A stretch of DNA of 46,593 nucleotides from Chloroflexota bacterium (GCA_017610335.1 JAFCCG010000002.1:1-46593), one strand, 5' to 3'. Numbered from the stretch's first letter, positions 22 to 42,939 are shown. The notes: generated from the sequence alone by a model not told the origin. Numbers and translations: made by a program.

Positions 22-999
22 ATGTCATCAAAAAATGAAGAGTTTTTCAAAGACAAAAAAATACTGGTTACAGGCGGAGCCGGCTCAATAGGCAGCGAAA
101 TTTTAAAAAATCTGCTCAAATTCGGGGCAAAAACTGTAAGAAGCATTGACATAAATGAAAACGGGCAATTTGAGCTAAAGCACGAATTAGAATCCACTGG
201 AAATGCAAGTTTCTTTATTGGAGACATCAGGGACAGGGGCAGAATGCTGATGGCGGTAGAAGACATTGATATCATTTTTCACGCAGCAGCCCTGAAACAG
301 GTTCCGTTATGCGAATACAACCCGTTTGAAGCGGTTAAGACAAACGTGTTTGGAACACAAAACCTTATTGAGGCAGCACTTCAGGCAGGGGTTAAAAAAA
401 TGGTTACAATAAGCACTGACAAGGCCGTGAATCCCGTAAATGTCATGGGGGCAACAAAGCTTCTTGCAGAAAGATTAACAATTTCAGCAAACAGCTACAA
501 AGGCAAGAAAAAAACAGTTTTTTCATGCGTCAGGTTTGGAAATGTTCTGGACTCAAATGGCTCAATCATACCTTTGCTGAAAAAACAGATTAAGGCAGGA
601 GGTCCTGTAACAATTACAGATAATGGAATGACAAGGTTTGTTATGAGCATTCCAAAAGCAATTGGCCTTGTTCTTGAAGCAACAAGGGAAGCACAAGGCG
701 GAGACATCTTTGTACTAAAAATGCCAATAGTTAGGATAAAAGACTTAGCGGAAGTCATGATTGAAGAGCTTGCTCCAAAATATGGTTTTAAGCAGGATGA
801 AATTGAAAGAAAGATAATTGGAAGAAGGTATGGAGAAAAGCTGTTTGAAGAGCTTATGACTTCTGATGAGTGCAGGAATATGGAAGAGTCCGAAGAAATG
901 TTCAAAATTCATTCAATGGAAAGGCTTGTTCAATTCAGGAAAAAAAAGCCAAAGAAAACAAAAGGAATTCATACGATTCAGAAAACGGAAAGCTGTTAA
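22..999 (+). CDS. UDP-GlcNAc 4,6-dehydratase (PseB/FlaA1/CapD-like SDR); natural C-terminus probably frameshifted (true end about 1046)
   Basis: Motifs TGGAGSIG, FHAAALKQVP, STDKAVNPVNVMGATK, CVRFGNV and GEKLFEEL of the Polysacc_synt_2 family. Confidence 0.9.
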   Translation: MSSKNEEFFKDKKILVTGGAGSIGSEILKNLLKFGAKTVRSIDINENGQFELKHELESTGNASFFIGDIRDRGRMLMAVEDIDIIFHAAALKQVPLCEYNPFEAVKTNVFGTQNLIEAALQAGVKKMVTISTDKAVNPVNVMGATKLLAERLTISANSYKGKKKTVFSCVRFGNVLDSNGSIIPLLKKQIKAGGPVTITDNGMTRFVMSIPKAIGLVLEATREAQGGDIFVLKMPIVRIKDLAEVMIEELAPKYGFKQDEIERKIIGRRYGEKLFEELMTSDECRNMEESEEMFKIHSMERLVQFRKKKPKKTKGIHTIQKTESC

Positions 1000-1051
1000 G
1001 CAAGAAAGAAACAAGAGAAATGCTGAAAGAGGCAAAAGTTCTTTAAAAAAA
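817..1051 (+). repeat. Direct repeat copy 1 (3' end of dehydratase gene); copy 2 at 2619-2820
   Basis: 817-930 is identical to 2619-2732. 964-1051 matches 2733-2820 with one mismatch. Copy 2 lacks 931-963 (33 bp). Confidence 0.95.
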
Positions 1052-1188
1052 CATTGAAAAACATAAGAAATTAAATAGCTCCATTTCAAAACAATAAACT
1101 GAAGAAAATTTGCATTTCCTGCGAAAACAGGTAAAAAAATAAAAATTCTAAAAAGCAAAATTAAATTGGAAAAGAAGGTGACAAAAAA

Positions 1189-1860
1189 ATGAAATGCCCG
1201 AATTGTGGAGCAAGATTTTATGAAAAAAAAATAGTAAAAAAAACCTTTACCAAAATAGACAATGTAAAAAATCTTAATGTTGGATGTGGAGAAGAAGAAC
1301 TTGTTAAAGGATGGCTCAATATTGGACTATTTTCAGAAGACAAAATCCCTTATGGTTCAATCATAAGCAAGAACGGAACAAGAGTATTGAATTTTGATTT
1401 AACACAAAATCTTCCATTGCCCGAAAATAGCATAGAGTATGTATATGGAAGCCATTTTATTGAACATTTGAGTTTCAACGACGGTTTAATGTTTTTGAAA
1501 AGAATGCACACAGTTATGAAAAAAGGCGGAGTAATCAGGCAATGTTTTCCAGACCTTGAATTGTGGATTAAAAACTATTATGAAAACAACAATAAATTTT
1601 TTAACGAATACAAGTCAACGTTTTCTTCATGCAAGCAGGCAAAAACCAAGGGACAGATTTTTATGACACAAGTTCATGCTTTTGGCCACAGATGGGGTTA
1701 CGATTTTGATTCAATGAAAGATTCCTTTGAAAGGGCAGGATTTTCAAATGTTGCCAAAAAAAAAGTTCATGAAAGTTTGATACCGGAAATTAAGAAAATA
1801 GAGCCCTGTTGGAGAGGGCGGGTTCTGGAAACGGCTTATGTTGAAGCTAAAAAAGCTTGA
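1189..1860 (+). CDS. Class I SAM-dependent methyltransferase (type 11-like)
   Basis: LNVGCG motif I, LPLPENSIEYVYGSHFIEHL, MKKGG; GGTGA RBS upstream. Confidence 0.85.
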   Translation: MKCPNCGARFYEKKIVKKTFTKIDNVKNLNVGCGEEELVKGWLNIGLFSEDKIPYGSIISKNGTRVLNFDLTQNLPLPENSIEYVYGSHFIEHLSFNDGLMFLKRMHTVMKKGGVIRQCFPDLELWIKNYYENNNKFFNEYKSTFSSCKQAKTKGQIFMTQVHAFGHRWGYDFDSMKDSFERAGFSNVAKKKVHESLIPEIKKIEPCWRGRVLETAYVEAKKA

Positions 1861-1871
1861 AAGGGATTAAC

Positions 1872-2355
1872 ATGAAAAAAAGAAAAAGAACTGTTCAGAA
1901 CAAGGCAAACAGCTTTAATGCCATAAGGCATGCCATAAAAGAATTTGAAAAAATTTATGGCAAGAAAGTAAGCCATATAGTGCTATTGCAGCCAACCTCT
2001 CCATTTAGGGAAGCAAGGCATATTAACAAGGCATTAGAAAAGTTTTTTGAATCAAAAGCAAATTCGCTTTCCTCTGTTGTAAAAGCAAAAGATGGAAACA
2101 AATTCCTGGTTTATCTTAAAAAAGGAAAGCCAATAATTCTTTCAACAGGAATGGAAACAATGCAGGAGATTCAAAACGCATTGGAAGTCATTTATAAGAC
2201 GGGCAACAAAAAAATAATCGCTCTGCATTGCACCACCAATTATCCCTGCGACTTAAAGCAAGTGAACTTGAATGCAATGCTTTCGATGAAAGAAGAGCTT
2301 GACTGTCTTGTGGGATTCTCAGACCATAGCTTAAGCATGGTTGTGCCAGGTGCAG
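1872..2355 (+). pseudogene. In-frame chimera of a CMP-nonulosonate synthetase (NeuA-like) fragment and a nonulosonate synthase (NeuB-like) fragment
   Basis: IVLLQPTSPFR...SLSSV (NeuA middle) is joined to KPIILSTGM...LHCTTNYP...VGFSDHS (NeuB middle); both ends of both enzymes are missing. Confidence 0.85.
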
Positions 2356-2478
2356 CCAGTGCATTTGAAAACAGCTTACAGAAAGCAATTTGACTGCAGG
2401 AAAGGAATGCTTCCGATTACTGAAAAGATTGCAAAAAAGGTTTTAACCCTGCCATTTCATGCAAAAATCAAAGCATAA
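2356..2478 (+). pseudogene. C-terminal fragment of DegT/DnrJ/EryC1/StrS sugar aminotransferase
   Basis: Manual translation PVHLKTAYRKQFDCRKGMLPITEKIAKKVLTLPFHAKI matches the family C-terminal signature; not in the ORF track. Confidence 0.8.
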
Positions 2479-2820
2479 GAAGCCTTGACATAAATGAGAA
2501 CAGGCAATTTGAGCTCAAGCACGAGCTTGGAAACCCAAAAAATATTGGCTTTCTGATTGGAGATATCAGGGACAGGGAAAGAATGATGATGGCGGTGGAA
2601 GATATTGAGAGAAAAATCATTGGAAGAAGGTATGGAGAAAAGCTGTTTGAAGAGCTTATGACTTCTGATGAGTGCAGGAATATGGAAGAGTCCGAAGAAA
2701 TGTTCAAAATTCATTCAATGGAAAGGCTTGTTGGAATTCATATGATTCAGAAAACGGAAAGCTGTTAAGCAAGAAAGAAACAAGAGAAATGCTGAAAGAG
2801 GCAAAAGTTCTTTAAAAAAA
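2474..2820 (+). pseudogene. Internally deleted second copy of the 4,6-dehydratase
   Basis: IRSLDINENRQFELKHEL...MAVEDIE is a diverged match to about 136-270 and is fused directly to RKIIGRRYGEK... (nucleotide-identical to the 3' part of gene 22..999 from 817). Confidence 0.9.
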
Positions 2821-2827
2821 AAAGAGA

Positions 2828-3787
2828 GTGAAAAAAATGAGACCAATATATGATGTACCAGTTATACAAATTGACGTAACCAATGCATGCACGCATGAAT
2901 GCGCAAATTGCACAAGGTTTGTAGGACACTACAAAAAGCCGTTTTTTATGGACCTGAAAACCGTAGAAAAAGCCCTTGATTCAGTTAAAGACTTTCCAAA
3001 AAACATAGGATTAATGGGTGGAGAGCCTACACTGCACCCGCAATTTGAAGAAATTTGCAAGCTTTACCAGGAAAAAATTCCGGAAAAAAGAAGGAGGAGA
3101 TTCTGGACATCCGGCTACAAATGGAAAGAATATGAAAAAATTATCAAAGAAACTTTTGACATGGACATAATAAGTTACAATGACCACTCAAACAAAGACG
3201 AAGGCTGGCACCAGCCATTGCTTATTGCTTCCGACGAAATAATAGAAGACAAGGAGCTAATGTGGAAGTTAATTGATGACTGTTGGATTCAAAAAAGATG
3301 GTCTCCCTCAATAACTCCAAAAGGTGCATTCTTCTGTGAGGTTGCAGCAGCCCTTGACATGATGTTTGATGGTCCAGGAGGCTGGCCAATTGAAAAAGAC
3401 TGGTGGAAAAAAGAGCCAAAAGACTTCCAAGACCAGGTTAAAAGATACTGCGTAATGTGCAGTGCCGCAATCCCTTTAGAGATTCCAAGCAGCCACTTAC
3501 AGTACGACATTATATCAAAAGGAAACCTGAAAAGACTTGAAAAAATTGGCTCGCCAAAATACCTAAAAAAAGCATTCAAAATATATGACAAAAAATACAC
3601 CTATGAAGACTACAAAAAATACTTCAAAAACTGGGCGCCTGGGCATTACAGGGATTTTGTTCAGCATGATCCAAAAAAAAGGGAAAAGGACACTGAAATA
3701 AAAAAGCCTTGGGCAACCTTTGACAAAAACGAAGTATGTAATGCAGGCCTAAATGCCAAAGAAAAAAAGGTAAAAGGAAAACAGTAA
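2828..3787 (+). CDS. Radical SAM protein, uncharacterised
   Basis: CxxxCxxC (CTHECANC), GGEPTLHP, additional C-terminal cysteines. Confidence 0.85.
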   Translation: MKKMRPIYDVPVIQIDVTNACTHECANCTRFVGHYKKPFFMDLKTVEKALDSVKDFPKNIGLMGGEPTLHPQFEEICKLYQEKIPEKRRRRFWTSGYKWKEYEKIIKETFDMDIISYNDHSNKDEGWHQPLLIASDEIIEDKELMWKLIDDCWIQKRWSPSITPKGAFFCEVAAALDMMFDGPGGWPIEKDWWKKEPKDFQDQVKRYCVMCSAAIPLEIPSSHLQYDIISKGNLKRLEKIGSPKYLKKAFKIYDKKYTYEDYKKYFKNWAPGHYRDFVQHDPKKREKDTEIKKPWATFDKNEVCNAGLNAKEKKVKGKQ

Positions 3788-4061
3788 AAGCAATTCTTGC
3801 AGCAAACACTAAACAAAACAGGCGAATGCAAGTTGCCAGAAAAGCCTGAACAAAAAAAAAGATTTTAAACAAGATTGTACCAAATGACTTTAAATAAAAG
3901 CAAAAAACTAGGTAAAAAGCCTTACGCCAAACAAAAGCAAAATTCCAGTAAATTTGACATTGACAATGCTTTCAAATATATCAATGATCAAAATCTTGAA
4001 AAGAAGATTTTGAAAAGACATAGGAACAGGCAATGGGTCAAAAAGAATTGGATGGGAATGA

Positions 4062-4976
4062 ATGCAAATGCTGATAACTAACCAAGAGGCTGAACCAAAT
4101 TATTACTTTTCAAAGCCTGAAAAAAAGCCAAAGCCGGTACCAGGTGAAAGAGCAAGAACATTTCAGGATAAAACTATCTCAGGTCTTAACAGCGCAAGGT
4201 ATGCTGTGGAAGAGCCATTGAAGCTAAGGCTCCTAAGAATGTTGCATAAGAAAGAGTACTCAACACAGGAAAAGAACCCTTTGGTTACTGTTTACACACC
4301 AACTTATAACAGGGCAAAACTTTTGATGGAACGGGCTTTGCCGTCTGTTCTTGACCAAAGCTACAAAAATATAGAATATATTATTATTGGAGACTGCTGC
4401 ACTGATGAAACAGCAGACCTTGTCAAATCAATGAAAGATAAGAGGATTAGGTTTTACAACCTGCCAAAAAAGTGCAGTAACTTTCCCCAAGATGTAAAAG
4501 GCAGATGGTTTGCAGGGCCTGTTGGGCCGTCCAACGTCGCCCTTGATAAGGCAAAAGGCAAGTGGATTGCCCGCATTGACGACGATGACTCGTTTACAAA
4601 GGACCATATAGAATTACTGTTGAGATTTGCACAGGAAGGAAACTATGAATTTGTTTCGGCTGCCTATAAAGCAAAAAGACAGGGCAAAGAATATGTAGTG
4701 GATGTGAAAGATATTATCCCCAAAATTGGCGGAACCTCAACCTGGCTTTACCGTTCCTATTTAAAGAGTTTTAAGTATAATATAAACTGCTGGAGAAAGA
4801 ACTGGAACTGCGTCAATGATACAGACCTTGTTTACCGCCTGTATAAAGCAGGAGTGAGAATGGACTTTTTGGACAAGGTTGTTTCCTATGTGTTTCCAAG
4901 GCCTGGAGAGCAGACAATTGGCATTGAGGCCTACAAAGAAGCTGAAAAGGAAGGGCGAAAAACCTATAATGAGTGA
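4062..4976 (+). CDS. Glycosyltransferase family 2
   Basis: VTVYTPTYNR, IGDCCTD, IARIDDDD motifs. Confidence 0.88.
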   Translation: MQMLITNQEAEPNYYFSKPEKKPKPVPGERARTFQDKTISGLNSARYAVEEPLKLRLLRMLHKKEYSTQEKNPLVTVYTPTYNRAKLLMERALPSVLDQSYKNIEYIIIGDCCTDETADLVKSMKDKRIRFYNLPKKCSNFPQDVKGRWFAGPVGPSNVALDKAKGKWIARIDDDDSFTKDHIELLLRFAQEGNYEFVSAAYKAKRQGKEYVVDVKDIIPKIGGTSTWLYRSYLKSFKYNINCWRKNWNCVNDTDLVYRLYKAGVRMDFLDKVVSYVFPRPGEQTIGIEAYKEAEKEGRKTYNE

Positions 4977-5090
4977 ATTTTAAATAGCCTGATGTGCTTT
5001 CCTATGAATTTTGTTTGTTAGCCCAAAGCTCAATGCGGCATGAGGGTTATGACAAAAACAGGCCATTGCTGAAACAATACATGCAAGCAG

Positions 5091-6662: not shown

Positions 6663-6666
6663 AAAA

Positions 6667-8220: not shown

Positions 8221-8315
8221 TTAATACAGTTAATCCAAAAAGGTATTTAAAGAAAAGGGCAAAGTTATAGTACGTTAATCAAAAAATAACGATTTTAAAA
8301 GAGTTAAAGGCAAAA

Positions 8316-9296
8316 TTGATTACAATGAAAAAAATGTTAAAGCTTGTAGTGCTAATCCCTGCGCTCAACGAGGAAAAAACAATTGCCACAGTAATCAAAG
8401 CAATTCCAAGAAAAATTGAAGGAATTTCAAAAGTACTTGTTTTAGTAGTTGACGACGGAAGCACTGACAGAACAGTACAAAAGGCAAGACTTGCAAAAGC
8501 TAACAAAATCGTTTCACACAAGGGAAACAAAGGTCTCGGAATAGCATTCCAAACAGGACTTGACACAGCCCTTAAAATGGGCGCAAGAATTATTGTAAAC
8601 ATTGACGCAGACGGGCAATTCAATCCAAAAGACATTCCAAAAATCATTGCACCAATTTTACAAGACAAAGCAGATGTTGTCATATGCAGCCGTTTTTTGG
8701 ACAAAAGCCTTGAATCAAAAATGCCAGGAATTAAAAAATTCGGAAACAGATTGTTTACAAAAATAATAAACCTGTTTACAGGAAGCCATTTTACTGATAC
8801 ACAATGCGGCTTCAGAGCATACAGCAAAGAAGCCGCTTTGAGAATGAACCTGTTTGCAAAATTCACTTACACACAGGAAGTTTTAATGGACCTTTCACAG
8901 AAAGGAATGCGAATTGAAGAAGTTGCCTGCAAAGTAGAGGGAAAACGCAACGGTCAAAGCAGAATTGTATCACACTGGTATAGTTATGGAATAAGAGCAT
9001 TGATAATAGTAGTAAGAAGTTTAAGAGACTACAAACCATTACAGTTTTTTGGGATTATCGGCACAATCTTTTTCCTTATAGGAGCAATAAGCGCATTTAT
9101 TCTCTGGATAAGACTTATACTAATCCACCAAATAGACCCATTCATGTGGATTGTTTACACAGACGTTATCTTAATCGTTCTCGGATTCCTTTTGATAATT
9201 CTTGCACTAATCGCAGACCTTGTTGACAGACAAAAAAGAATACAGGAAGAAATCCTTTACAGAATTAAGAAAAAAGAAATTGAAAAAATTCAATAA
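8316..9296 (+). CDS. GT2 polyprenol-phosphate glycosyltransferase (DPM synthase-like) with two C-terminal TM helices
   Basis: IPALNEE, VDDGSTD, NKGLG, DADGQ, DTQCGFRA; start may be 8325 or 8334. Confidence 0.9.
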   Translation: MITMKKMLKLVVLIPALNEEKTIATVIKAIPRKIEGISKVLVLVVDDGSTDRTVQKARLAKANKIVSHKGNKGLGIAFQTGLDTALKMGARIIVNIDADGQFNPKDIPKIIAPILQDKADVVICSRFLDKSLESKMPGIKKFGNRLFTKIINLFTGSHFTDTQCGFRAYSKEAALRMNLFAKFTYTQEVLMDLSQKGMRIEEVACKVEGKRNGQSRIVSHWYSYGIRALIIVVRSLRDYKPLQFFGIIGTIFFLIGAISAFILWIRLILIHQIDPFMWIVYTDVILIVLGFLLIILALIADLVDRQKRIQEEILYRIKKKEIEKIQ

Positions 9297-9304
9297 ATCA
9301 AAAA
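9134..9304 (+). repeat. 171-bp direct repeat copy 1 (3' end of GT2 gene); copy 2 at 12108-12278
   Basis: Read-through comparison shows one mismatch (gcagacc vs gcaaacc). Confidence 0.95.
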
Positions 9305-9349
9305 AAATAGAATTAAAAAAAAACAAACAAGTGTTTCAATTTGATTTGA

Positions 9350-9405
9350 TTTCCAAGATTGTACCAAATTGGTTAAGTTAAAAAAGAAAACCTCTTTGAT
9401 TATTA
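9350..9405 (+). repeat. 56-bp identical copy of the divergent-promoter region at 13615-13670
   Basis: tttccaagattgtaccaaattggttaagttaaaaaagaaaacctctttgattatta occurs at both places, with diverged similarity on both flanks. Confidence 0.92.
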
Positions 9406-9443
9406 CTTATAATACTCACTTACAATACATTTTTGGAGACCGC

Positions 9444-9533
9444 ATGAATATTGTATGTTTTAACCCCTCCAAAGAATTGCTTAAAACAAGCTTTAGAAGC
9501 GGCTGGAGCCTGCTACAATATATCAGGGGATAA
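9444..9533 (+). pseudogene. 29-codon collapsed homolog of radical SAM gene 13708..15120
   Basis: MNIVCFNP-SKELLKTSFRSGWSLLQYIRG* versus MNIVFLNP...NLLKTSFRSGWSLLQYIK*. Confidence 0.88.
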
Positions 9534-9537
9534 AGAG

Positions 9538-10236
9538 ATGGCTAAAAATAATGAAAGTGTTTCCTTTTTTTTCCCAGCATACTATGATAAAAAAAGCCTT
9601 CCAAAACTTGTTTCCGACTTTTATAAAACTCTTCAAAAGACAGGGCGAGATTTTGAAATAATAATAATAGACGATTGTAGCCCTGATGGAACAGGCGCGG
9701 TTGCGAACAAACTTGCCAAAAAATTTCCAAAGGTTAGAGTAATTCACAACCCAAAAAATTTGGGATATGGTGGCGTATTGTTCGCAGGATTTAATTCAGC
9801 AAAAAAAGACCTGGTTGGCTTTACCGACGGGGATGCACAGTATTCTGCAAATGACTTTGGGAAATTTCTGGAAGCAATAAAGGACGCAGATTTTGTCATA
9901 GGATACAGGATGAACAGGGCCGAGGGTGTTAGCAGGATGATTATACAAAATGGCAACAAGGTTGCATTGTTTTTATTTTTTGGCATGCGCTTTAGGGATT
10001 GTGACTGCGGCTTCAAGATGATTAGAAAAAATGTTTTCAAAAAGGTGACACCGCATTCAAAAGGCGGATTTTTCAGCGCGGAAATGATTTACCGTGCAAA
10101 AAAGAACGGTTTGAGAATTAAAGAAGTTCCAGTAACACATTTGAAAAGGCCTTTTGGAAAAAGTACTTTTTTGAGATGGGGCAAAATTTTTGACTTTATT
10201 GAGGATATGCTGAAAATGCGGATTGGAAAACTTTAA
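9538..10236 (+). CDS. GT2 glycosyltransferase (DPM1-like)
   Basis: FFFPAY, IDDCSPD, NLGYG, DGDAQY, DCDCGFK; start reassigned to ATG 9538 because the upstream sequence is the radical SAM remnant. Confidence 0.88.
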   Translation: MAKNNESVSFFFPAYYDKKSLPKLVSDFYKTLQKTGRDFEIIIIDDCSPDGTGAVANKLAKKFPKVRVIHNPKNLGYGGVLFAGFNSAKKDLVGFTDGDAQYSANDFGKFLEAIKDADFVIGYRMNRAEGVSRMIIQNGNKVALFLFFGMRFRDCDCGFKMIRKNVFKKVTPHSKGGFFSAEMIYRAKKNGLRIKEVPVTHLKRPFGKSTFLRWGKIFDFIEDMLKMRIGKL

Positions 10237-10265
10237 TAAAAGGTTTTGCACCAATAAGTTTTGCA

Positions 10266-11183
10266 ATGAGTAATTACCTTGTTTTAGGAGCAAATGGTCT
10301 TATTGGCAGCAGTGTTTCAGAACGACTTGCTATAGAAGGCCATAACATACGAGCCTTTGACCTGTTTCAGGGACATGACAACCTTGTAGGCATTGAATCT
10401 ATTGAAAAAATGAAGGCAGATTATTTGAAGGAAGAAGACTTAAAAAAAGCAGTCAAAGAAATTGAAACAGTGTTTCATTGCATTCATACAACGATTCCAA
10501 GAACAAGTGTTGAAAAACCATTGTTTGACGCTGAAACAAACATTGTTCCAAGTCTCAGACTTTTGGAACAGGCAACAAAGGCAGGCGTGAAAAAAATCGT
10601 TTACATCAGCTCTTTGGCAGTTTATGGAAACCCATTAAACAATCCAATTAAGGAAACTGATGCCATGCAACCAATTTCCCCATATGGTGTGTCAAAGCTT
10701 GCAATTGAAAAGTATTTGGAATTGTTTTACAAAAACCATGGACTGGATTACACAATATTAAGACTTGCACCAACCTACGGTGAAAGGCAAAGAGTTTCTC
10801 CAGGATCAGGAGTTATAGCAAACTTTGTTTTTAATTCACTGCATGAAAAGCCAATTATAATGTACGGAAACGGAAATGCTGAAAGAAACTTTTTGTTTGT
10901 TGAAGACTCTGCAAAAGGCATTTCCAAAGCAGCTTTCAAGAAAACTAAATCAAAAATTTTCAATTTGGGCGGCTCCGAAACTGTAAGTGTGAAGCAATTA
11001 GCAGGGAAGGTGGCAAACGCAACAGGCAAAAAATTGAAAATAAACCATATTGAAAAAAAAAACGAGATTGAAAAGCTTGTATGCGATTTTACCAGGGCAA
11101 AACAAGAACTTTTATGGAAACCAGAAGTCAAGTTGGATGAAGGCATAAAAAGATGTGTTGCAACATTTAAAAAAGGAGAGTAA
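10266..11183 (+). CDS. NAD-dependent epimerase/dehydratase (GalE-like SDR)
   Basis: GANGLIG, SSLAVYG, YGVSK catalytic motif. Confidence 0.9.
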   Translation: MSNYLVLGANGLIGSSVSERLAIEGHNIRAFDLFQGHDNLVGIESIEKMKADYLKEEDLKKAVKEIETVFHCIHTTIPRTSVEKPLFDAETNIVPSLRLLEQATKAGVKKIVYISSLAVYGNPLNNPIKETDAMQPISPYGVSKLAIEKYLELFYKNHGLDYTILRLAPTYGERQRVSPGSGVIANFVFNSLHEKPIIMYGNGNAERNFLFVEDSAKGISKAAFKKTKSKIFNLGGSETVSVKQLAGKVANATGKKLKINHIEKKNEIEKLVCDFTRAKQELLWKPEVKLDEGIKRCVATFKKGE

Positions 11184-11188
11184 TTTGA

Positions 11189-11947
11189 ATGGAAAAAAAG
11201 TATGCCTCAAAGTACTTCAATCTGGAAGACGAGCATTGGTGGTTTAAGGCAAGGCGTGACATAATAGGCAGAATAATTAAAGAAATGCCAAAGAAGGCAA
11301 AGATTTTGGATGTCGGATGCAGCGGAGGCGTTTTAATTAATGCGCTCAAGGAAAATGGCTTTTGGGACATCAGCGGAATTGACATCAGCGAAGAAGCCAT
11401 TGAAAAGTGCAAAAAGACAGGGCTAAAAAAAGTAAAAAAAGCCGACGGAGCAAAAACCGGCTTTAAGGCAAACAGCTTCGACCTGATAATTGCTTCAGAT
11501 GTCCTTGAACACATTAAAGAAGAAAAGAAAGCACTAAAAGAATGGAAAAAGATTTTGAAGAAAAACGGAAAACTTCTGGTTTTTGTGCCAGCAGTTGATT
11601 TTTTGTGGAGCGCTCACGATGTGGCAAACGCGCATTGTAGAAGATACAAAAAGAAAAAGCTTTGCAAAGCGTTAAAGGAAGCTGGTTTTGAAGTGTTGCA
11701 ATCAGGCTATTGGAACTTTTTTTTGTTTCTTCCGGTAAGCATTTCAAGAATTGTGCAGAACCTTTTTATTCAACCGGAAAAGAGACATGAAAGGAGAGAC
11801 CAACTGGTAAAAGCTGGTAGAATTTCAAACAGGCTGTTGACTGAATTACTTTTGCTTGAAAACAGGATGTTTTCAAACAAGGTTAACTTTCCTTTTGGAG
11901 TAAGCATTTTTGCACTAGGCAAAAATTTTGAGATTGCACCAAAATAA
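11189..11947 (+). CDS. Class I SAM-dependent methyltransferase
   Basis: EDEHWWFKARR, LDVGCSGG, DVLEHI, HCRRY; a type common in glycan loci. Confidence 0.9.
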   Translation: MEKKYASKYFNLEDEHWWFKARRDIIGRIIKEMPKKAKILDVGCSGGVLINALKENGFWDISGIDISEEAIEKCKKTGLKKVKKADGAKTGFKANSFDLIIASDVLEHIKEEKKALKEWKKILKKNGKLLVFVPAVDFLWSAHDVANAHCRRYKKKKLCKALKEAGFEVLQSGYWNFFLFLPVSISRIVQNLFIQPEKRHERRDQLVKAGRISNRLLTELLLLENRMFSNKVNFPFGVSIFALGKNFEIAPK

Positions 11948-12107
11948 TTTATAATCTGTTGCAAGCCATATTTTAGTATTGGCAAAGCCGGTGAATCAAA
12001 TAAATATTGCCAACAGAAACTATACTTATAGAATTAGTAGAAAACAAACGGAGTCAATTAAATAGCAAAGGCATTAGCTGAAAAGAAAACAGTTCTATTG
12101 GTTCAGC

Positions 12108-12278
12108 AGACCCATTCATGTGGATTGTTTACACAGACGTTATCTTAATCGTTCTCGGATTCCTTTTGATAATTCTTGCACTAATCGCAAACCTTGTTGA
12201 CAGACAAAAAAGAATACAGGAAGAAATCCTTTACAGAATTAAGAAAAAAGAAATTGAAAAAATTCAATAAATCAAAAA
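12108..12278 (+). repeat. Direct repeat copy 2: orphan 3' end of GT2 gene 8316..9296
   Basis: Matches 9134-9304 with one mismatch. Confidence 0.95.
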
Positions 12279-12279
12279 C

Positions 12280-13575: not shown

Positions 13576-13707
13576 AAAAAAAATTAAACCAGCAAGTGTT
13601 TTAATTTGGTTTGGTTTCCAAGATTGTACCAAATTGGTTAAGTTAAAAAAGAAAACCTCTTTGATTATTATTTATAGTAATCACTTAGAATTAGTTTTGG
13701 TGACCTT

Positions 13708-15120: not shown

Positions 15121-15121
15121 C

Positions 15122-15232
15122 AGAATTCAAAAAAAAAGCACCAGCTTTAGCACATAAAACAACAGGATTTGAAAAAGCACCAGCTTTAGCATAGGAAATA
15201 AAAGAATTTGAAAAAGCATCAGCTTTTTTGCA
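15122..15232. repeat. Three imperfect tandem copies (period 39) of the 3' end of the GT4 gene
   Basis: aaaaagcaccagctttagca at 15133 and 15172; variant aaaaagcatcagcttt at 15211 contains the GT4 stop codon. Confidence 0.85.
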
Positions 15233-21940: not shown

Positions 21941-21998
21941 AGATTGGAAATGTTTTTATAACATTAAACTTTTTGCTTTTCACCCTAGTTTATAACAT

Positions 21999-28661: not shown

Positions 28662-28700
28662 TTGTGTTTGAAAAAAACTAATCAAAATTAGAAGAAGACT

Positions 28701-30185: not shown

Positions 30186-30319
30186 ATTTATTCAAACCCC
30201 TAAAAAGAAATAGCCATATAAATTAAATAATACTGCAAAGATATATAAATTTTTCTCCTTTAAAAAAAACCCGCACACAGGGCAGGCTGGTTTTTTAAAA
30301 CACACAGCGGACAAGTTTT

Positions 30320-31273
30320 TTAAAACACTTTCTTTTTTTCGCCAAGCGTTAAAAGGAATCCGGGAACTCCGAGGAGTATGGTTGCAATAAACACAAGCAA
30401 CGAAAAAGAAACCGCGGAACTTGCAGGAAGAGAAACAAGCGCGAAGAAGAACACCAATGAAAATTCCCTTGTTCCAATTCCATTGAATGCAATCGGCAAA
30501 ATTCCCAAAAGGTTTACTATGGGCATTATAAGGAAAAGGTATTCAAAGGATATTGGAATATTAAGGGACAGGGCAAGAACATAATATTGAATCGCCGAAA
30601 TAACCCATAATAGAACAGTAAGAAGGCCTGCTTTAAGCATTAGTCCCTTTTTTGACTTGTAAATTTTTACGCCGTCAAAAAATTCATCAAGGCCCCCTTT
30701 TATTTTTTCGTTAAACCTCTTTGGAATAAAAAACCTGTAAAATGGCCTGAAGACAACAAAAACAAGATTTTTTTTTGTCAAAAGATATGTACACGCAAGA
30801 AAAAGCAAAAATATTGCAAGAATTGGAATAAAAAGGTCAACATCAAAAATCAAAAAAGAGGACATCACAAAAATCCCTAAAAGGGTTAATGCAAAAAGCA
30901 CGGCAACATCAAAAAAGCGCTCAACAACAACCGCCAAAAGCCCTTTGCCAACACTAACCGTTGTTTTGTCAGAAATATAAACACATTTTATTACATCGCC
31001 TGACTTGCCGGGAGTAATAATTGAAAAGAAAAACCCAATAAGCCAGATTTTTGCAGAATCCAAAATGCCCAACTTTACCCCAAAGCCATTTACTAAAAGC
31101 GATTGCTTGTATGCTTTGAGCAAAATGATTGGAACCAAAATCAGCAAAGCAATTGCAAAAAGCAATAAATTCATCTGCAAAAAGCTTTGGATTATATTAT
31201 CAATTCCAATTGCCCAAATGATATAGGCAAAAACAGCAAGCCCTACCAGCCCAAAATACTTTATGTATTTCAT
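30320..31273 (-). CDS. UPF0104/AglD2-like flippase (lysylphosphatidylglycerol synthase TM region)
   Basis: ITPGKSGD, ERFFD, PIAFNGIGTRE; start reassigned to ATG 31273 because the upstream extension is tandem repeat. Confidence 0.85.
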   Translation of the reverse strand: MKYIKYFGLVGLAVFAYIIWAIGIDNIIQSFLQMNLLLFAIALLILVPIILLKAYKQSLLVNGFGVKLGILDSAKIWLIGFFFSIITPGKSGDVIKCVYISDKTTVSVGKGLLAVVVERFFDVAVLFALTLLGIFVMSSFLIFDVDLFIPILAIFLLFLACTYLLTKKNLVFVVFRPFYRFFIPKRFNEKIKGGLDEFFDGVKIYKSKKGLMLKAGLLTVLLWVISAIQYYVLALSLNIPISFEYLFLIMPIVNLLGILPIAFNGIGTREFSLVFFFALVSLPASSAVSFSLLVFIATILLGVPGFLLTLGEKKKVF

Positions 31274-31392
31274 AAAATTAACACCCTTAACGCTTTTGCA
31301 CCCCCAAACCACATAAAATTAACACCCTTAACGCTTTTGCACCCCCAAACCACATAAAATTAACACCCTTAACGCTTTTGCTGCCCAAACCA
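31271..31392. repeat. 41-bp tandem repeat x3 spanning stop codon, RBS and ATG
   Basis: cataaaattaacacccttaacgcttttgcacccccaaacca at 31271 and 31312 (identical); variant at 31353. Confidence 0.95.
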
Positions 31393-32304
31393 TTCAATCG
31401 TTTTTGCAAGGCCTTCTTCAAGCCTGACTTTTGGAGCCCAGCCAAGCTTTTTTTCCGCAAGCGTTATATCGGGCTTTCTTCTTACAGGGTCGTCTTCCGG
31501 AAGGCTTGTGAAAGAAAGTTTGCTTTCACTTTTTGAAATTTTTAAAACTGTTTCTGCAAATTCTTTTACGGTTATTTCATGAGGGTTTCCAATATTAACA
31601 GGCTTACCGTAATCGGATTCCATTAATGCAATTAAGCCCGCAACCAAATCAGTTACAAAGCAAAAAGACCTTGTCTGCAGGCCTTTACCGTAAATTGTAA
31701 TATCCTTTCCGCTTATTGCCTGCATAATAAAATTTGGAGTAACCCTTCCATCGCCAAGCCTCATTCTTGGGCCATATGTATTGAAAATTCTCGCAGTCCT
31801 TGTTTCCAGGCCAAACTTTCCTGCATAGGAAAAAACAAGTGCTTCTGCAAACCTCTTGCTTTCATCATAACAGCTTCTTTCACCAATTGTATTAACGTTT
31901 CCCCAATAGCTTTCCTTCTGCGGATGCTCTAAAGGCTGGCCGTAAACTTCACTTGTTGAAGCCTGCAAAATTCTTGCCTTTTTTTCAACAGCAAGGTCAA
32001 GGCTGTTTTTTACGCCAATTGAATTTGCAAGCATTATTTTAATCGGAATTTTTGAAAAGTCTTTTGGCGAGGCAGGGCTTGCAAGATTGTATACAAAATC
32101 AACCTCTTCTTTAACAGTAAACGAAATGGTTATGTCGTGTTCAAGAAGTGAAAAATTTTTTTCCTGCATTAAATGCTCTATGTTTTGCTTTTGCCCTGTT
32201 AAAAAGTTGTCAACACAAATTACGCGCAGGCCTTTTGAAAGAAGTACTTCACACAAATGGCTTCCAATAAAGCCTGCTCCACCTGTTACAACAGCTGTTT
32301 TCAA
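31369..32304 (-). CDS. UDP-glucuronate decarboxylase (UDP-xylose synthase)
   Basis: GGAGFIGSHL, LASPASP, ASTSEVYG, YWGNVN, RSCYDESKR, DDPVRRKPDI. Confidence 0.92.
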   Translation of the reverse strand: MKTAVVTGGAGFIGSHLCEVLLSKGLRVICVDNFLTGQKQNIEHLMQEKNFSLLEHDITISFTVKEEVDFVYNLASPASPKDFSKIPIKIMLANSIGVKNSLDLAVEKKARILQASTSEVYGQPLEHPQKESYWGNVNTIGERSCYDESKRFAEALVFSYAGKFGLETRTARIFNTYGPRMRLGDGRVTPNFIMQAISGKDITIYGKGLQTRSFCFVTDLVAGLIALMESDYGKPVNIGNPHEITVKEFAETVLKISKSESKLSFTSLPEDDPVRRKPDITLAEKKLGWAPKVRLEEGLAKTIEWFGQQKR

Positions 32305-32338
32305 ACTAGAACACCTGATAAATTGAGTAATAAAAACT

Positions 32339-32439
32339 ATTTAAAGCATCTGCTTGTCTAATGGCCCAAACCATTTAAAGCATCTGCTTGCCCAAAGGCT
32401 CAAACCATTTAAGGCATCTGCTTGCCCAAAGGCTCAAAC
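32339..32439. repeat. 34-bp tandem repeat x3 of the nucleotidyltransferase 3' end
   Basis: atttaaagcatctgcttgcccaaaggctcaaacc-type units at 32339, 32373 and 32407. Confidence 0.93.
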
Positions 32440-33161
32440 TCTTTTCTTGATTTCTCAAGGGCAGAATGCCACCCAATGTCAAACCATTTTTCTTTATAGG
32501 CATATCCATATACCTTATCGTTTTTCAAAAGCCATATCATGAAATAGCCCATTTTGTCAGGGTCGTTTCCTTCTTCAATGAATTTCTTGAAAAGGCTTAC
32601 CTTTTCCTTTGGAAAAAAATATATTCCCAAAGAAATCAGTGTGCTCTTTGGATTTTCATCCTTTTCCTGGAAATCAACAAGCTTTCCTGAACCGTCAATT
32701 ACGCCAATGCCCTGCTGTTTTGCAACCTCAAGGCTTTGGCTGTCCCAAAGCCCGTTCACAACCAGATTTTTCTCTTTGAAGAAACAGTATGCCGGCCTCA
32801 AAGAAAAGTTAAACAGATTGTCGCCTGCCACAACCAAGAGGTTGTCATCGATTTTTTCCTGTTCTATTACAAACTGTATGTCTCCAACCTGACCTTTTCT
32901 GTCCTCATTACTTTTTGTGCCATCGTTCAAAATTTTTATTGAAACATTGCTTGAAAAGCCTTTTAGCCATTGGTCAAAATTTTGAAAGTATTTGCCATTG
33001 CTGACAATAAAAATTTCGCTTACGTTGGGCAATTCCTCAATTCGCTTTACAATGTGTTCAAGAATTGGCCTGCCTTTTACTTCAAGCAATGCCTTTGGCT
33101 TGTTTTCAGTTAAAGGATAGAGCCTTGTTGCATAACCAGCAACAGGAATTATTACCTTCAC
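32409..33161 (-). CDS. Sugar-phosphate nucleotidyltransferase
   Basis: VAGYATRLYPLT..KPKALL, AGDNLF, WFDIG. Confidence 0.9.
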   Translation of the reverse strand: MKVIIPVAGYATRLYPLTENKPKALLEVKGRPILEHIVKRIEELPNVSEIFIVSNGKYFQNFDQWLKGFSSNVSIKILNDGTKSNEDRKGQVGDIQFVIEQEKIDDNLLVVAGDNLFNFSLRPAYCFFKEKNLVVNGLWDSQSLEVAKQQGIGVIDGSGKLVDFQEKDENPKSTLISLGIYFFPKEKVSLFKKFIEEGNDPDKMGYFMIWLLKNDKVYGYAYKEKWFDIGWHSALEKSRKEFEPLGKQMP

Positions 33162-33209
33162 TTAATCAGCCTCTTGAAAACAATCAGCCTCTTGGGAAAT
33201 TGCCATTCC

Positions 33210-35269: not shown

Positions 35270-35334
35270 TTTTTACAGCCCCATTAATCAAAAGAGTCAA
35301 GGGATTTAAAAAGAATTAGGGCAAATTCGACAAT

Positions 35335-38177: not shown

Positions 38178-38339
38178 CCTCTTTGTTTAAACCTGCAATC
38201 GCAAAAGCAGCCAAGACCATTTGCTGTTCAACTTGCTCAATTCCAGCATTTTAACATTCAACTTAAATGTTTTTTTAAATAGATACGCAATCAATAAAAA
38301 AAAATAAGTTTAACATTAATTCAAATAATGGAACATTAA

Positions 38340-38427
38340 AAAAAGATAAACTTTAATTAACTTAACAGACTCAAAACTTGCCCCCTAGTACAATTAGGAA
38401 AAAGATAAACTTTAATTAACTTAACAG
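38340..38427 (+). promoter_or_regulatory. Duplicated 29-bp BRE/TATA-like block
   Basis: aaaaagataaactttaattaacttaacag is identical at 38340 and 38399; the TATA-like core of the second copy lies about 25-30 nt upstream of ATG 38441. Confidence 0.75.
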
Positions 38428-38440
38428 GCTATTAGTTTTT

Positions 38441-39184: not shown

Positions 39185-39189
39185 CAGAA

Positions 39190-39807: not shown

Positions 39808-39932
39808 AAAAATAAATAGCTTTCAGATTATCCACTAAAAAGGCAGCCCCCCTAAAATCACAATTATACATTGCACAAGCCTTTAAATTCTTTTTTACAC
39901 AGAAAATTGTTTGTTAATTGGAGAATTTTTAA

Positions 39933-40484
39933 ATGGACTTGAGCAAAAAAATTCGGACAATTCCAAACTTTCCAAAAAAAGGCATTTTGTTCTACGACGT
40001 AATGAGCCTTTTCCAAGACGCCTCGGCCTTTCGGCAGGCGGTTGACGACCTGGTTGAATACTTTATGAAAAAAGACATGCACTTTGACAAAGTAGTAAGC
40101 ATGGAATCACGCGGATTCATCCTTGGCTCTGTTCTGGCATACGAATTCCACGCAGGATTTGTCCCGCTGCGAAAGCCTGGAAAGCTGCCATACAAAACAA
40201 TAAGTCAGGAATTTGAAAAAGAATACGGCAAGGACTCATTTGAAATACACGAGGACGCAATAGAAAAAGGGGAAAGCGTTTTGATTGTGGACGATTTGCT
40301 TGCCACATCGGGAACAATGAAGGCATCAATCGACCTTGTTGAAGCCCTTGGCGGAAAGATAAATGGAATCGCCTGCCTTATTGAACTAACATTCCTAAAA
40401 GGAAGAGAAAAAATAAAAGGATACGACCTGTACACCCTACTCAAATTTGACAGCGAAAAGGTTGAAGAGGGACAGCATGCCTGA
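39933..40484 (+). CDS. apt: Adenine phosphoribosyltransferase
   Basis: IPNFPKKGILFYD, ESRGF, RKPGKLP, IVDDLLATSGT. Confidence 0.95.
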   Translation: MDLSKKIRTIPNFPKKGILFYDVMSLFQDASAFRQAVDDLVEYFMKKDMHFDKVVSMESRGFILGSVLAYEFHAGFVPLRKPGKLPYKTISQEFEKEYGKDSFEIHEDAIEKGESVLIVDDLLATSGTMKASIDLVEALGGKINGIACLIELTFLKGREKIKGYDLYTLLKFDSEKVEEGQHA

Positions 40485-40920
40485 AAAAATTTCAAAAGGA
40501 AAGCTTGTGATAAGGGCGGCAAAGAAAAGCGAATTGGAAAGGTTCGAAATCAATCTTAGAAAAGACTTAGTGTAGCCTAAGCTTTTTGTCGCAGTTTATG
40601 ATGGCGAAATCGTGGGAGCAACTTTTGTCGGAAAGAGTCCAAAAAAGAACAATGGCATTATTCAAAATATCGAAATATTTGTTAAAGGGCTTAGAGATAA
40701 AGGAATTGGCCACAAGCTTTTGGGAAAAGCCCACTCCTATCTCCACAAAAAAGGTATAAAAGCCAGCACAACAACGGCAATAAGAGGAACAAGCGGATTC
40801 TACAAAAGCGCAGGTTATAGAGAACTAGAAAAAATCGGGCCTGTTGGCGACCACTTCTTCAGCAAAATGGTAAGGGTTCCAAAAAGGAAACAAAGAATCA
40901 TTAGGAGAAGAAGAAAATGA
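40477..40920 (+). pseudogene. GNAT acetyltransferase interrupted by one in-frame TAG (40573-40575)
   Basis: ATG 40477 is in frame with the 40612 ORF. LVIRAAKKSE...*PKLFVAVYDGEIVG...FVKGLRDKGIGHKLL...FYKSAGY. Confidence 0.8.
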
Positions 40921-40932
40921 TTGGAATAATCG
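40915..40932 (+). repeat. 18-bp direct repeat of the mtnP start (second copy 41617-41634) flanking the TA pair
   Basis: aaatgattggaataatcg occurs at both sites; decayed similarity continues for about 54 nt. Confidence 0.85.
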
Positions 40933-41020
40933 AAGGCAAAAGCCCTGGCAAACAGGAAATATTAAAAGAAATGAAAGATTTAAATATAACTTGCGATATA
41001 ATTTTATTATAGGTGATATT

Positions 41021-41215
41021 ATGGAAGTTTTGGTCAGGACAAGAAAAATTGGCGGTTCGATTGTTACAACCATTCCAAAGCCGGTTGTGGAAAAAGAAGG
41101 CATAAAGGGAAACGAATTTGTAAAGCTTGACATAAAAAAAGTCAAAAAAAGCTTTTTTGGAAAGCTCAAAGGAATTGGGCCCTTTACCGAAAAAGACGAA
41201 CTCAATATAAAATAG
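41021..41215 (+). CDS. vapB: AbrB/MazE-fold antitoxin
   Basis: RKIGGSIVTTIPK...EGIKGNE swapped-hairpin motif; GGTGA RBS; upstream of a PIN toxin. Confidence 0.85.
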   Translation: MEVLVRTRKIGGSIVTTIPKPVVEKEGIKGNEFVKLDIKKVKKSFFGKLKGIGPFTEKDELNIK

Positions 41216-41227
41216 GGAGATTAAGGC

Positions 41228-41617
41228 ATGAATGTAATAGTTGACAGCTATGCTTGGATAGAATACTTTGAAGGAAGCAAAAAAGGGCTTTTGGCAAAAG
41301 AAATAATAGAAAATGAAAATAATAGCATATTTTGTTCAGCATTAACAGTTTCAGAAATTGTAAGCAAAAGCGAGAGACTTGGAAAAGACAGCAGCCAATA
41401 TATTGAAGCAATGCAATCACTATCTCGAATTTTGAAAATAGACGAAAAGACAGCAATAGAAGCAGGAAAAAAACACGCAGCCATCAGAAAAAAAGTGAAA
41501 AACTTTGGGCTGGCAGATGCCTTTATCATAGTGCAAGGGGAAAAAGAAAAAGCAAAAATTTTAAGCGGAGACAAACACTTTAAAGAAATGAAAAATGCAA
41601 TCTTTATAGGCGATTGA
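41228..41617 (+). CDS. vapC: PIN-domain toxin
   Basis: [28 protein letters not shown]. Confidence 0.92.
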
Positions 41618-41618
41618 A

Positions 41619-42407
41619 ATGATTGGAATAATCGGCGGCTCAGGCCTTGACGACCCAAAGCTTTTGAAAGAAGCAAACGAAAAGAAAGTTGAAACACCCT
41701 ATGGCAAGCCAAGCTCGCCTATTGCAATTGGAAAAATTGGCAATGTTGGGGTTGCAGTCCTTGCAAGGCATGGGAAAAAGCACGGGATAATGCCCTCAAA
41801 TGTTAATTTCAGGGCAAACATCTGGGCATTAAAGGAATTGGGGGTAAAGCACCTGCTTGCCACAACTGCCTGCGGCTCATTGCGCGAAGAAATCATGCCT
41901 GGGCAAATTGTTTTTCCCGACCAGTTCATTGACTGGACAAGCAAAAGGGCAAGCACTTTCTTTGACAAGAAAGAAGTATGCCATATTCCAATGGCAGACC
42001 CATTCTGCCCAAAAATAAGGGAAACACTTATCGAAACAGCAAAAGAACTCAAAATAGGCCACCACGAAAAAGGAACGGTTATTACAATAGAGGGGCCGCG
42101 CTTTAGCACAAGGGCAGAATCAAAAATGTTCAGGAGAATCGGCGGGGACATAATCAACATGAGCACAGTCCCCGAAGTTGTCCTTGCACGCGAAGCCGGA
42201 ATGTGCTATCAAAGCATTGCAATGGCAACAGACTACGACTGCTGGCGTGAAGAAGACAGTGTTGATATTGCAACAGTCATGAAAGTATTTGCAAAAAACG
42301 TTGAAAACGTGAAAAGCCTTTTGCTTGCATCAATTCCAAAAATCTCTTTTTCAGAATGCGAATGCCAAAAGCACATTAACAACGCGATAATAAAGCACGA
42401 AGACTGA
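41619..42407 (+). CDS. mtnP: S-methyl-5'-thioadenosine phosphorylase
   Basis: [45 protein letters not shown]. Confidence 0.93.
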
Positions 42408-42432
42408 AGCAAAACCGTTCAAAAAAACAGGT

Positions 42433-42939
42433 TCAAAAGGCAAAGCCGTTCAAAAGCCCAAGCGTTACAGCAGTTACCATTGCAGCCGCTATCAGCACCC
42501 CGACCACGCAGGCAATTGCAAAATCCCGAAAACACACCCCAAGCAGGTAAGCAGCCAAAGCCCCTGTCCAGACACCTGAACCAGGCAAAGGAATGCCAAT
42601 AAAGATTGCAAGCCCTACTGCCCCGTATTTTTCAACAAAGGGCTTTGCTTTTCTCTGTGTTCTTTCCACAATTCTATTATATAATACTTTAATATATTGG
42701 ATTCTGGTAAAAAGCCTTACAAGAAAATCCAAAGCAAAATACAGAAAAAGACCCAAAAGAATGTTTGTTATTACCACAATTGGCAAAACCTCAAACACAG
42801 ACATACCAAACCCGTTTATTGTTCCAATCAAAGGCAGGTCAATTGGCTTATTCCAAAGCCCGAGTGGAATACTCCACCTTAATTCAAAAACAGGAGCAAG
42901 AGTAAACAACACAAGATAAAAAATATTATATAAGCTCAT
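42433..42939 (-). CDS. Small multi-drug export-like membrane protein (COG2426)
   Basis: PVFELRWSIP, FIGIPLPGSGVWTG. Confidence 0.82.
   Translation of the reverse strand: MSLYNIFYLVLFTLAPVFELRWSIPLGLWNKPIDLPLIGTINGFGMSVFEVLPIVVITNILLGLFLYFALDFLVRLFTRIQYIKVLYNRIVERTQRKAKPFVEKYGAVGLAIFIGIPLPGSGVWTGALAAYLLGVCFRDFAIACVVGVLIAAAMVTAVTLGLLNGFAF

Follow-up and report, generated by a model that had tools for sequence, protein, structure and literature searches.

Duplicated junctions and collapsed gene copies mark a hypervariable surface-glycan locus in a DPANN-type archaeon

In many microbial genomes no part varies more than the glycan islands, and there is continuing debate over the way their gene content turns over. 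Replacement flexible genomic islands devoted to surface glycans have been described in aquatic bacteria and archaea (PMC4033161; PMC4535781), and, in the portion of PMC4033161 used here, the island boundaries are without clear hallmarks of illegitimate recombination and exchange is ascribed to recombination in the conserved flanks. The capsule island of Neisseria meningitidis lies between regions D and D' and is accompanied by two galE copies, of which galE1 is intact and galE2 is a truncated remnant (PMC5349592). [quoted passage not shown] At a smaller scale, microhomology-mediated tandem duplications filtered by selection have been reported in yeasts and humans (PMC8639346, PMC13167724). Each of these papers is represented here by part of its text. 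The window analyzed here, which is the entire 46.6-kb contig C72 of the source genome G000, is almost wholly a surface-glycan locus of an archaeon, and it contains blocks of genes that are bracketed by duplicated sequence and accompanied by the collapsed remains of further gene copies.

The locus is best explained, with a probability of about 0.6, by two ordinary processes, recombination with relatives and copying slips, which have marked a hypervariable glycan locus; no new cassette system is called for. The original prediction for this DNA had proposed an integron-like system in which cassettes enter at gene boundaries, duplicate the gene ends, and leave tandem scars when their cargo is later deleted. 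The three repeat pairs on which it was built were recovered in place and lie far beyond chance (E 1e-85 and 6e-83 for two of them, 18 nt exact for the third). The three bracketed blocks are likewise real, but "duplicated gene ends" proved too small a description of blocks 1 and 2, which are larger collapsed multigene copies.

In block 2, the intact family 2 glycosyltransferase (GT2) gene GT2a (8316..9296, + strand) ends in repeat A (9134-9304), which consists of the last 163 nt of the gene and the next 8 nt. An orphan copy of this 3' end, A'' (12108..12278, +), is identical to A at 170 of 171 positions (E 6e-83, BLAST). Because A'' differs from A at a single base while A matches its counterpart in the congener G002 at only 148 of 171 positions, A'' is a recent duplicate made within the lineage. 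The block inserted between the two copies (9305..12107, +) is absent from G002, G001, G006, and G015. It opens with a ghost promoter region, b' (9315-9467; 88% identical to 13578-13731), and a 29-codon in-frame ghost of the radical SAM gene R2 (9444-9533), which includes the stretch c' (9480-9523; 86% identical to 15070-15113). These are followed by GT2b (9538-10236, +, with a probable start at 9538), an epimerase gene (10266-11183, +), and a methyltransferase gene (11189-11947, +), the last separated from A'' by a 160-nt spacer. Beyond A'' stand two resident radical SAM/B12 genes, R1 (12280-13575 if read from ATG, - strand) and R2 (13708-15120, +), with a divergent promoter region, B, between them; the resident R1-R2 stretch is 90% identical in G002, where it is contiguous with GT2a.

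The stretch at 9134-9523 is a collapsed copy of 12108-15113. This ghost copy lacks R1 from stop to start, within about 2 nt if the R1 start is the ATG at 13575, with both deletion endpoints in A-runs, and its relic of R2 joins the first 9 codons to the last 18 in frame. The B regions of G000 and G002 are 96.2% alike, whereas ghost b' is 87.8% identical to that of G000 and 86.5% identical to that of G002; it has 17 differences at positions where the two B regions agree, 5 of which are common to the more distant G006. In this comparison, the two resident B regions group together and b' falls outside them as an outgroup. The right junction of the block (12107/12108) shares at most 1 to 2 nt of sequence, and the left junction lies in an A-run. 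Because A equals A'', the crossover cannot be placed, and a Campbell-type entry fits equally well.

Block 1 involves a nonulosonic-acid operon whose last gene is an intact 4,6-dehydratase gene (Polysacc_synt_2, Pfam E 4e-106; 22..999, +). The upstream part of the operon forms the tail of another contig, C50, which encodes CTP_transf_3 (cytidylyltransferase), a radical SAM/SPASM protein, NeuB, Epimerase_2 (UDP-GlcNAc 2-epimerase), a hexapeptide transferase, and a DegT aminotransferase. DegT and the dehydratase are adjacent in G001, G002, and G006, and the first bases of C72 match the end of the G002 aminotransferase gene; judged by that gene, C50 and C72 would be separated by about 45 nt. The 3' end of the dehydratase gene and 52 nt of its downstream flank (795..1051, +) recur at 2597-2820 (257 and 224 nt, E 1e-85, with one 33-nt indel; BLAST). 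The cargo between the intact operon and its ghost is a methyltransferase-like ORF, or open reading frame (1189..1860, +; weak Methyltransf_11 match), and a search of 40 relatives gave no DNA match to 1052-1883 among the matches listed. The ghost itself (1884..2820, +) represents the entire operon, about 7.4 kb shrunk to 0.94 kb, with its pieces in operon order: cytidylyltransferase (1884-2130; 95% identical to C50), NeuB (2120-2348; 70%), the 3' end of DegT (2354-2467; 100%, the last 114 nt of C50), the 5' part of the dehydratase gene (2476-2608; 79-80%, homologous to 137-269), and its 3' end with flank (2597-2820; 96-100%). A 178-codon "NeuB" ORF at 1857-2393 is a chimera of such fragments. 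C50 stops exactly at the end of the 114-nt stretch that is identical to 2354-2467, which is how an assembler behaves at a true repeat. Within the ghost, the 5-nt sequence ATTGA is shared at the junction left by the deletion in the dehydratase gene. The 5' piece has 85.0% identity to the G006 allele versus 78.9% to the resident gene, and within about 20 nt past the junction the ghost passes to 100% identity with the resident gene over a stretch of 112 nt. In the two glycan blocks, for which gene ghosts had been predicted, these further homologies (137-269 with 2476-2608, 9315-9467 with 13578-13731, 9480-9523 with 15070-15113, and 1884-2467 with three pieces of the C50 tail) make the repeats parts of larger collapsed copies.

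The relatives provide the corresponding empty sites. The 40 relatives were searched with positions 1-16000 of the window, and 32 of them matched. GT2a is followed directly by R1-R2 in G002:C138, G001:C105, G006:C3, and G015:C19, with G002 85-90% identical to the window, and directly by R2, without R1, in G004; the position after GT2a is therefore occupied by R1-R2, by R2 only, or by an inserted block. G001:C3 carries DegT, dehydratase, and radical SAM genes in succession with no ghost, and the dehydratase gene adjoins the flippase gene in G002 and G006, so that the dehydratase-flippase interval contains 0 genes, 2 genes, or 2 genes and a ghost, depending on the genome. The pair consisting of a radical SAM gene (2828-3787, +) and a GT2 gene (4062-4976, +), together spanning 2828..4976, is present in G001 and G015 and absent from G002 and G006. 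DNA from relatives did enter the locus, because the ghost pieces are closer to the alleles of other lineages than to the resident copy; this part of the original prediction is upheld both by the empty sites in congeners and by the outgroup position of ghost pieces. Gene order also varies more widely: in two other genera (G013, G020, G022, and G008) the order is R1-R2-GT2a instead of GT2a-R1-R2, and in G009 and G010 there are 5 to 7.5 kb of other genes between R1 and R2, with the same genes reshuffled across the family.

Under the preferred explanation, DNA of related lineages carrying another version of the locus would have integrated beside the resident genes without replacing them, probably through a homologous anchor on one side and an illegitimate join on the other or through single-crossover entry of a circle, and either route would duplicate a stretch at the junction. 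Redundant genes would then be lost by short-homology deletions, leaving ghosts in the form of gene ends, promoter regions, and mini-ORFs, and selection would retain only those outcomes in which the flanking genes are whole. The duplicates would seem to be placed on gene termini because selection keeps the flanking genes whole; entry specifically at gene boundaries, as had been proposed, does not agree with the right junction of block 2, which lies 163 nt inside the GT2a reading frame. Short tandem duplications would arise throughout the genome, and those with periods that are not multiples of 3 would persist only in intergenic positions or over a stop codon, sites at which a duplication is tolerated because its first copy keeps the gene intact; surviving arrays would later gain and lose copies. 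The comparison shows the repeats, the empty sites of the congeners, the foreign affinity of the ghost pieces, and, for the tandem repeats, a genome-wide bias in placement and a variable copy number; by which route the DNA recombined, and in what order the steps took place, is what we infer from it. The process is known in kind, and the host lineage, which belongs to little-studied archaea, is new.

The second of the two processes accounts for the six short tandem stutters at stop codons that had been read as scars, all of which were found in place. The array at 15133..15226 (period 39, 2.4 copies) spans the stop of a family 4 glycosyltransferase (GT4) gene (15219-16424, -) and echoes the end of R2. 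Two 25-nt copies with 88% identity, 34 nt apart (21955..22013; copies at 21955/21989), lie across the stop of the gene at 21999-23579 (-), and two 25-nt tandem copies with 76% identity (30275..30324; copies at 30275/30300) lie at the stop of the gene at 30320-31312 (-). The two strongest arrays are a 41-nt unit in 3 copies (31271..31393, -), which holds the last codons and stop of an epimerase gene together with a ribosome-binding-like GGGTG and the start codon (ATG) of the gene that follows, and a 34-nt unit in 3.1 copies (32334..32444, -), which holds the end of a nucleotidyltransferase gene and the TATA-like box TTTAAATA upstream of the epimerase gene. The sixth is a set of 16- to 17-nt stutters (42409..42463) between the convergent stops of mtnP and the gene at 42433-42966 (-). 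G003 has 2 copies, older ones, of both the 41-nt and the 34-nt unit; the 34-nt unit is present in about 1 copy in G006, G004, and G005. In the relatives compared, no cargo was found at the 31271-31393 and 32334-32444 junctions, where only copy number differs. The nucleotidyltransferase itself (32400-32444, -) ends in ...EFEP in relatives, and in G000 the stop codon is changed and the protein runs 6 codons into the tandem repeat, ending in ...EFEPLGKQMP.

Tandem Repeats Finder (TRF) was run on the whole of G000 and gave 443 merged arrays, 112 of which were kept (period ≥12, ≥80% matches, score ≥50, entropy ≥1.6); expected placements were taken from 200 random placements. Of the 40 arrays whose period is not a multiple of 3, half (20) run across a stop codon, against an expectation of 2.9 (p 7e-13). 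A further 10 fall between genes (expected 2.7) and 1 on the start side of a gene (expected 1.9), and just 9 lie within genes, where 32.4 would be expected. The 72 arrays with periods that are multiples of 3 are distributed as if at random, with 8 spanning a stop codon (5.3 expected), 8 intergenic (4.6), 3 on the start side (2.9), and 53 inside genes (59.2). The enrichment of repeats at stop codons that had been predicted therefore holds for frame-breaking arrays but not for in-frame ones, and since frame-breaking arrays alone are displaced, the pattern fits a selection filter that leaves genes intact. Most of the stop-spanning arrays (24 of 28) lie outside C72. The stutters are products of slippage that survive where they are harmless, throughout the genome, and not scars of cargo deletion: their placement depends on frame, they vary among 1, 2, and 3 copies without cargo, and the scar reading fails because excision by recombination of two direct repeats around a cargo should leave a single copy behind and no tandem array.

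Block 3 lies at the junction between the phosphoribosyltransferase (PRTase) gene and mtnP (39933-42407 of the window), a site that serves as a small hot spot for insertions throughout the family. Here the repeat is shorter, with 18 nt exactly shared between 40915-40932 and 41617-41634 (71% identity over 56 nt), and it holds the mtnP start. A GNAT acetyltransferase gene (40477..40920, +) with an in-frame TAG at codon 33, whose homologs are intact in G002 and G003, is followed by a ghost of the mtnP 5' end (40917..40977, +), the first 16 nt of which are exact and the remainder decayed, and then by a cassette of about 640 nt (40978..41617, +) consisting of a TATA-like, promoter-like region and two genes. 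The cassette is likened to vapBC in that its PIN-domain gene (41228-41617, +; PIN E 5e-14) is preceded by a 64-codon gene (41021-41215, +) that ends 12 nt 5' of it; the small gene belongs to no Pfam family. The intact mtnP gene (methylthioadenosine phosphorylase family; PNP_UDP_1 E 1e-50) follows at 41619..42407 (+). The left edge of the cassette, TTTAAATATAACTT, is identical in G000, G003, and G005, in which it occurs at three different positions and in three different contexts. The cassette is single-copy in G000, where only its promoter-like left end weakly matches C39 and C50.

As had been anticipated, the cargo between these anchors differs among relatives. Of 23 family genomes searched, 19 contain both anchors on one stretch, and G008 (no match), G011, G014, and G022 are outside the count. 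At least 8 states were found in the 19 genomes. The two genes abut or overlap (-4 to 9 nt) in four genomes (G006, G017, G004, and G001); they are separated by the GNAT gene in two genomes, by the vapBC-like cassette alone in G005, by the cassette and then the GNAT gene in G003, and by the GNAT gene, the ghost, and then the cassette in G000. A methyltransferase gene occupies the junction in two genomes (with a PIN-gene remnant as well in G018), a PfkB kinase gene does so in five, and a PfkB kinase gene with further genes does so in three; in G020 these further genes encode, among others, a DNA methylase and an HNH nuclease. The mtnP gene itself falls into two allele classes: the proteins of G002, G003, and G004, which belong to the same genus, and of G019 and G009, from other genera, are about 57 to 58% identical to that of G000, and those of G005, G006, and G001 are 73 to 81% identical to it. 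These classes hint at allele replacement.

The window encodes no recombinase, in agreement with the original prediction: a Pfam scan gave no recombinase domain in any of the 43 ORFs, and the matches in the rest of the genome are elsewhere, with 6 matches to PF00589 on C11, C18, C88, C84, and C61 and matches to PF00239 only on C75, where the gene is broken. The C11 match is a 713-residue Xer-like tyrosine recombinase (at about 900-2640, -), in which the Phage_integrase match is split into two parts by a large, possibly intein-like insertion. In a search for attC-like hairpins, 8 inverted repeats (arms at most 120 nt apart) were found in the window, none of which recurs at another junction; one pair, at 12239-12300, straddles the end of A'' beside the 3' end of R1. 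No Rfam family reached its gathering score in the window (whether Rfam includes an attC model was not established), a tRNA scan of the window found none, and no shared motif was seen by eye at the block junctions. The vapBC-like cassette and the GT2b block each have their own TATA-like upstream region, which may serve as a promoter.

The draft of G000 comprises 1.29 Mb in 95 contigs with 37% G+C, 87% estimated completeness, and 2.9% contamination. It encodes ribosomal protein S19e, a family that, in the control set, matches only the four archaeal genomes, and the nearest named relatives of one G000 gene are metagenome-assembled genomes labeled "archaeon" and "Candidatus Iainarchaeum archaeon". 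The host organism is an archaeon of the DPANN type with a small genome. A Pfam domain scan of the 43 ORFs of C72 identified glycosyltransferases of families 1, 2, and 4, two flippases, three UDP-sugar dehydrogenases, several epimerases or dehydratases, four B12/radical SAM enzymes, nucleotidyltransferases, and a PMT_2 protein.

Several alternatives bear on the same evidence. A purely internal history, in which multi-kilobase tandem segmental duplications, reciprocal gene loss, and patchy gene conversion shaped the locus with no foreign DNA, would explain why both glycan blocks consist of an intact and a collapsed copy in the same order and orientation and why A and A'' and several ghost pieces are 95 to 100% identical to the resident copy; loss through recombination between A and A'' would also restore the exact arrangement of G002. 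We consider it distinctly unlikely, given that the B regions of G000 and G002 are closer to each other than to ghost b', their outgroup, that the 5' piece of the ghost dehydratase is nearer to the G006 allele than to the resident gene, that precise loss would be required separately in four relatives, and that no relative examined has GT2b-epimerase-methyltransferase behind R2. A chimera in which the assembler joined the locus versions of co-occurring strains through shared sequence is suggested by the fragmented draft (95 contigs) with its 2.9% contamination, by the exact end of C50 at the 114 nt identical to 2354-2467, and by the presence of the ghost blocks in the G000 assembly only. It is nevertheless highly unlikely: the ghost junctions share only 5 to 12 nt, probably too short for a hop in a k-mer graph; both flank copies must exist as DNA, given the indels and substitutions that set them apart; a strain carrying the sequence from 1052 onward would itself have to possess the preceding flank copy; and the independent G003 assembly has 2-copy versions of the same tandem units.

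The integron-like route without an integrase, in which circular cassettes would strike gene termini, duplicate them, and leave tandem scars, finds points in its favor in the insertions with duplicated ends and their presence or absence among relatives, in the cassette that occurs with the same left edge at three positions in three genomes, and in the greater density of stop-spanning repeats on C72. It is extremely improbable all the same, for there is no recombinase on C72, no attC-like hairpin, and no common junction motif; tandem repeats occur genome-wide, survive according to frame, and vary from 1 to 3 copies without cargo; one junction lies within a gene and not at a boundary; and the cassette is present only once in G000. 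A more ambitious form of the recombination hypothesis, which we regard as unlikely, is that DPANN glycan loci turn over in general by a recombinase-free cycle of addition and pruning, with relatives' versions added by junction duplication, ORFs cut out near-precisely, and promoter-bearing ghosts kept; the ghosts may then be retained as drivers of new genes, as the perfectly conserved core of b' 5' of GT2b might be. If true, it would be a general archaeal counterpart of the orphan-forming displacement at bacterial toxin loci.

Other observations weigh against recombination with relatives and copying slips as the explanation of the locus. The alternating 95/70/100/79/100% identity of the operon ghost requires several exchanges. 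A one-sided homologous event with a donor that is 12% divergent predicts a divergent copy of A, and the 170/171 identity of A and A'' can be had only if the target was duplicated, the donor flank was nearly identical, or gene conversion came later. No donor was found for GT2b (query 9541-10236) in two large collections, the best match reaching 62% among species genomes and 42% among metagenome contigs; two relatives of GT2b at 61 to 62% have no R2 upstream of it, and the succession GT2b-epimerase-methyltransferase 3' of R2 was not seen in the relatives examined. Self-BLAST of the syntenic contigs of G003 (80 kb), G006 (57 kb), and G004 (45 kb) found no local direct repeats of ≥80% identity; the matches were only at the level of paralogs (67 to 75% over at least 100 nt), plus one 42-nt inverted match at 90%. 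Among the congener contigs compared, the ghost blocks are seen only in the G000 assembly, and their recurrence in the lineage is unsupported. The placement statistics of the tandem arrays use longest-ORF gene calls (1,501 genes, 90% coding). Stop-spanning arrays are also denser on C72 than elsewhere (4 of 28 for 45 of 1,501 genes; odds ratio 5.8, p 0.0085 in a post hoc test, the window having been chosen for these repeats), and a selection filter alone leaves this excess unexplained.

Elsewhere in G000, 50 pairs of local direct repeats with ≥78% identity were found within 15 kb of each other. Of these, 34 were hand-picked for classification and are mostly intergenic-to-intergenic or paralogs; the 16 that were dropped are for the most part overlapping matches within repeat-protein genes and tandem arrays. 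At C74 2728-2901/4141-4313, C55 13519/13705, C95 16487/17239, and C93 2539/10636, one copy touches a gene end, so these pairs, which lie away from the glycan locus, may likewise be gene-end echoes. Within the window, a 16-nt motif, CAAGATTGTACCAAAT, occurs at 3870-3885, 9354-9369, and 13619-13634, which are its only 3 exact occurrences genome-wide (0.17 expected in the window). Each copy lies directly 5' of an A/T-rich TATA-like stretch, the motif is also present in G002, G006, and G004, and it may be a locus-specific regulatory site. The 39 nt at 3914-3952, in the spacer before the GT2 gene, are 87% identical to 6117-6155 inside the first flippase gene and may be another small ghost; 26 nt are identical between the two flippase genes (6111-6136 and 17459-17484). 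A TnpB gene (43220-44467, from a domain match in the ORF scan; region 43072-44467) has no tnpA partner. It is one of 12 TnpB-domain matches in the genome, and the 130 nt 5' of it have similar copies on other G000 contigs and in G001, G003, and G005.

The locus represents a case, caught in the act in a DPANN-type archaeon, of glycan genes being added with junction duplications and decaying leftovers, and these duplications and ghosts could be used to put dates on such events and to arrange them in sequence. Where a genome is compact, tandem repeats gather at stop codons trivially and should not be taken for functional elements or scars. A literature search on DPANN genomic islands, glycosyltransferases, and recombination returned nothing on this topic, as judged from titles and the beginnings of abstracts.

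As far as the consulted parts of the literature allow, the locus has a close likeness to the displacement of T6SS and Rhs modules, in which a new module comes to stand beside the old one and an intact gene is accompanied by a downstream orphan 3' end, without an integrase. The same layout is present here, with A and A'' (170/171) bracketing an insert whose b' is an outgroup to the resident B. The account of that displacement cites earlier work by de Vries & Wackernagel 2002, Prudhomme 2002, Meier & Wackernagel 2003, and Jackson 2009. The present case differs in that archaeal glycan genes are involved, and not bacterial toxin and immunity genes, in that the displaced genes decay and are not kept, and in that the recombination route is inferred. 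With the surface-glycan islands the locus shares the same genomic place and type of function with gene sets that differ in close relatives: gene content varies at the same location, and the genes are those of exposed glycans, including the NeuB/DegT operon of C50. Unlike the islands of PMC4033161, the boundaries here carry duplicated ends and ghosts, and genes are added, not swapped.

The Neisseria capsule island and the present locus have in common horizontally acquired glycan genes that lie between the copies of a duplicated region, with one gene intact and the other a truncated remnant, although the former is one large island in a bacterial pathogen and the latter consists of several small blocks. 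The stutters resemble the microhomology-mediated duplications in being short, head-to-tail, depleted from coding sequence by purifying selection, and reversible in copy number, according to the excerpts available; in contrast to yeasts and humans, the host here is an archaeon with 90% coding density, because of which the survivors pile up across stop codons, and the likeness is one of placement and copy number. Integrons likewise add gene cassettes at a fixed place; in contrast to them, the locus has no intI, attI, or attC, its inserted blocks carry promoter-like regions of their own, and its junctions share no site.

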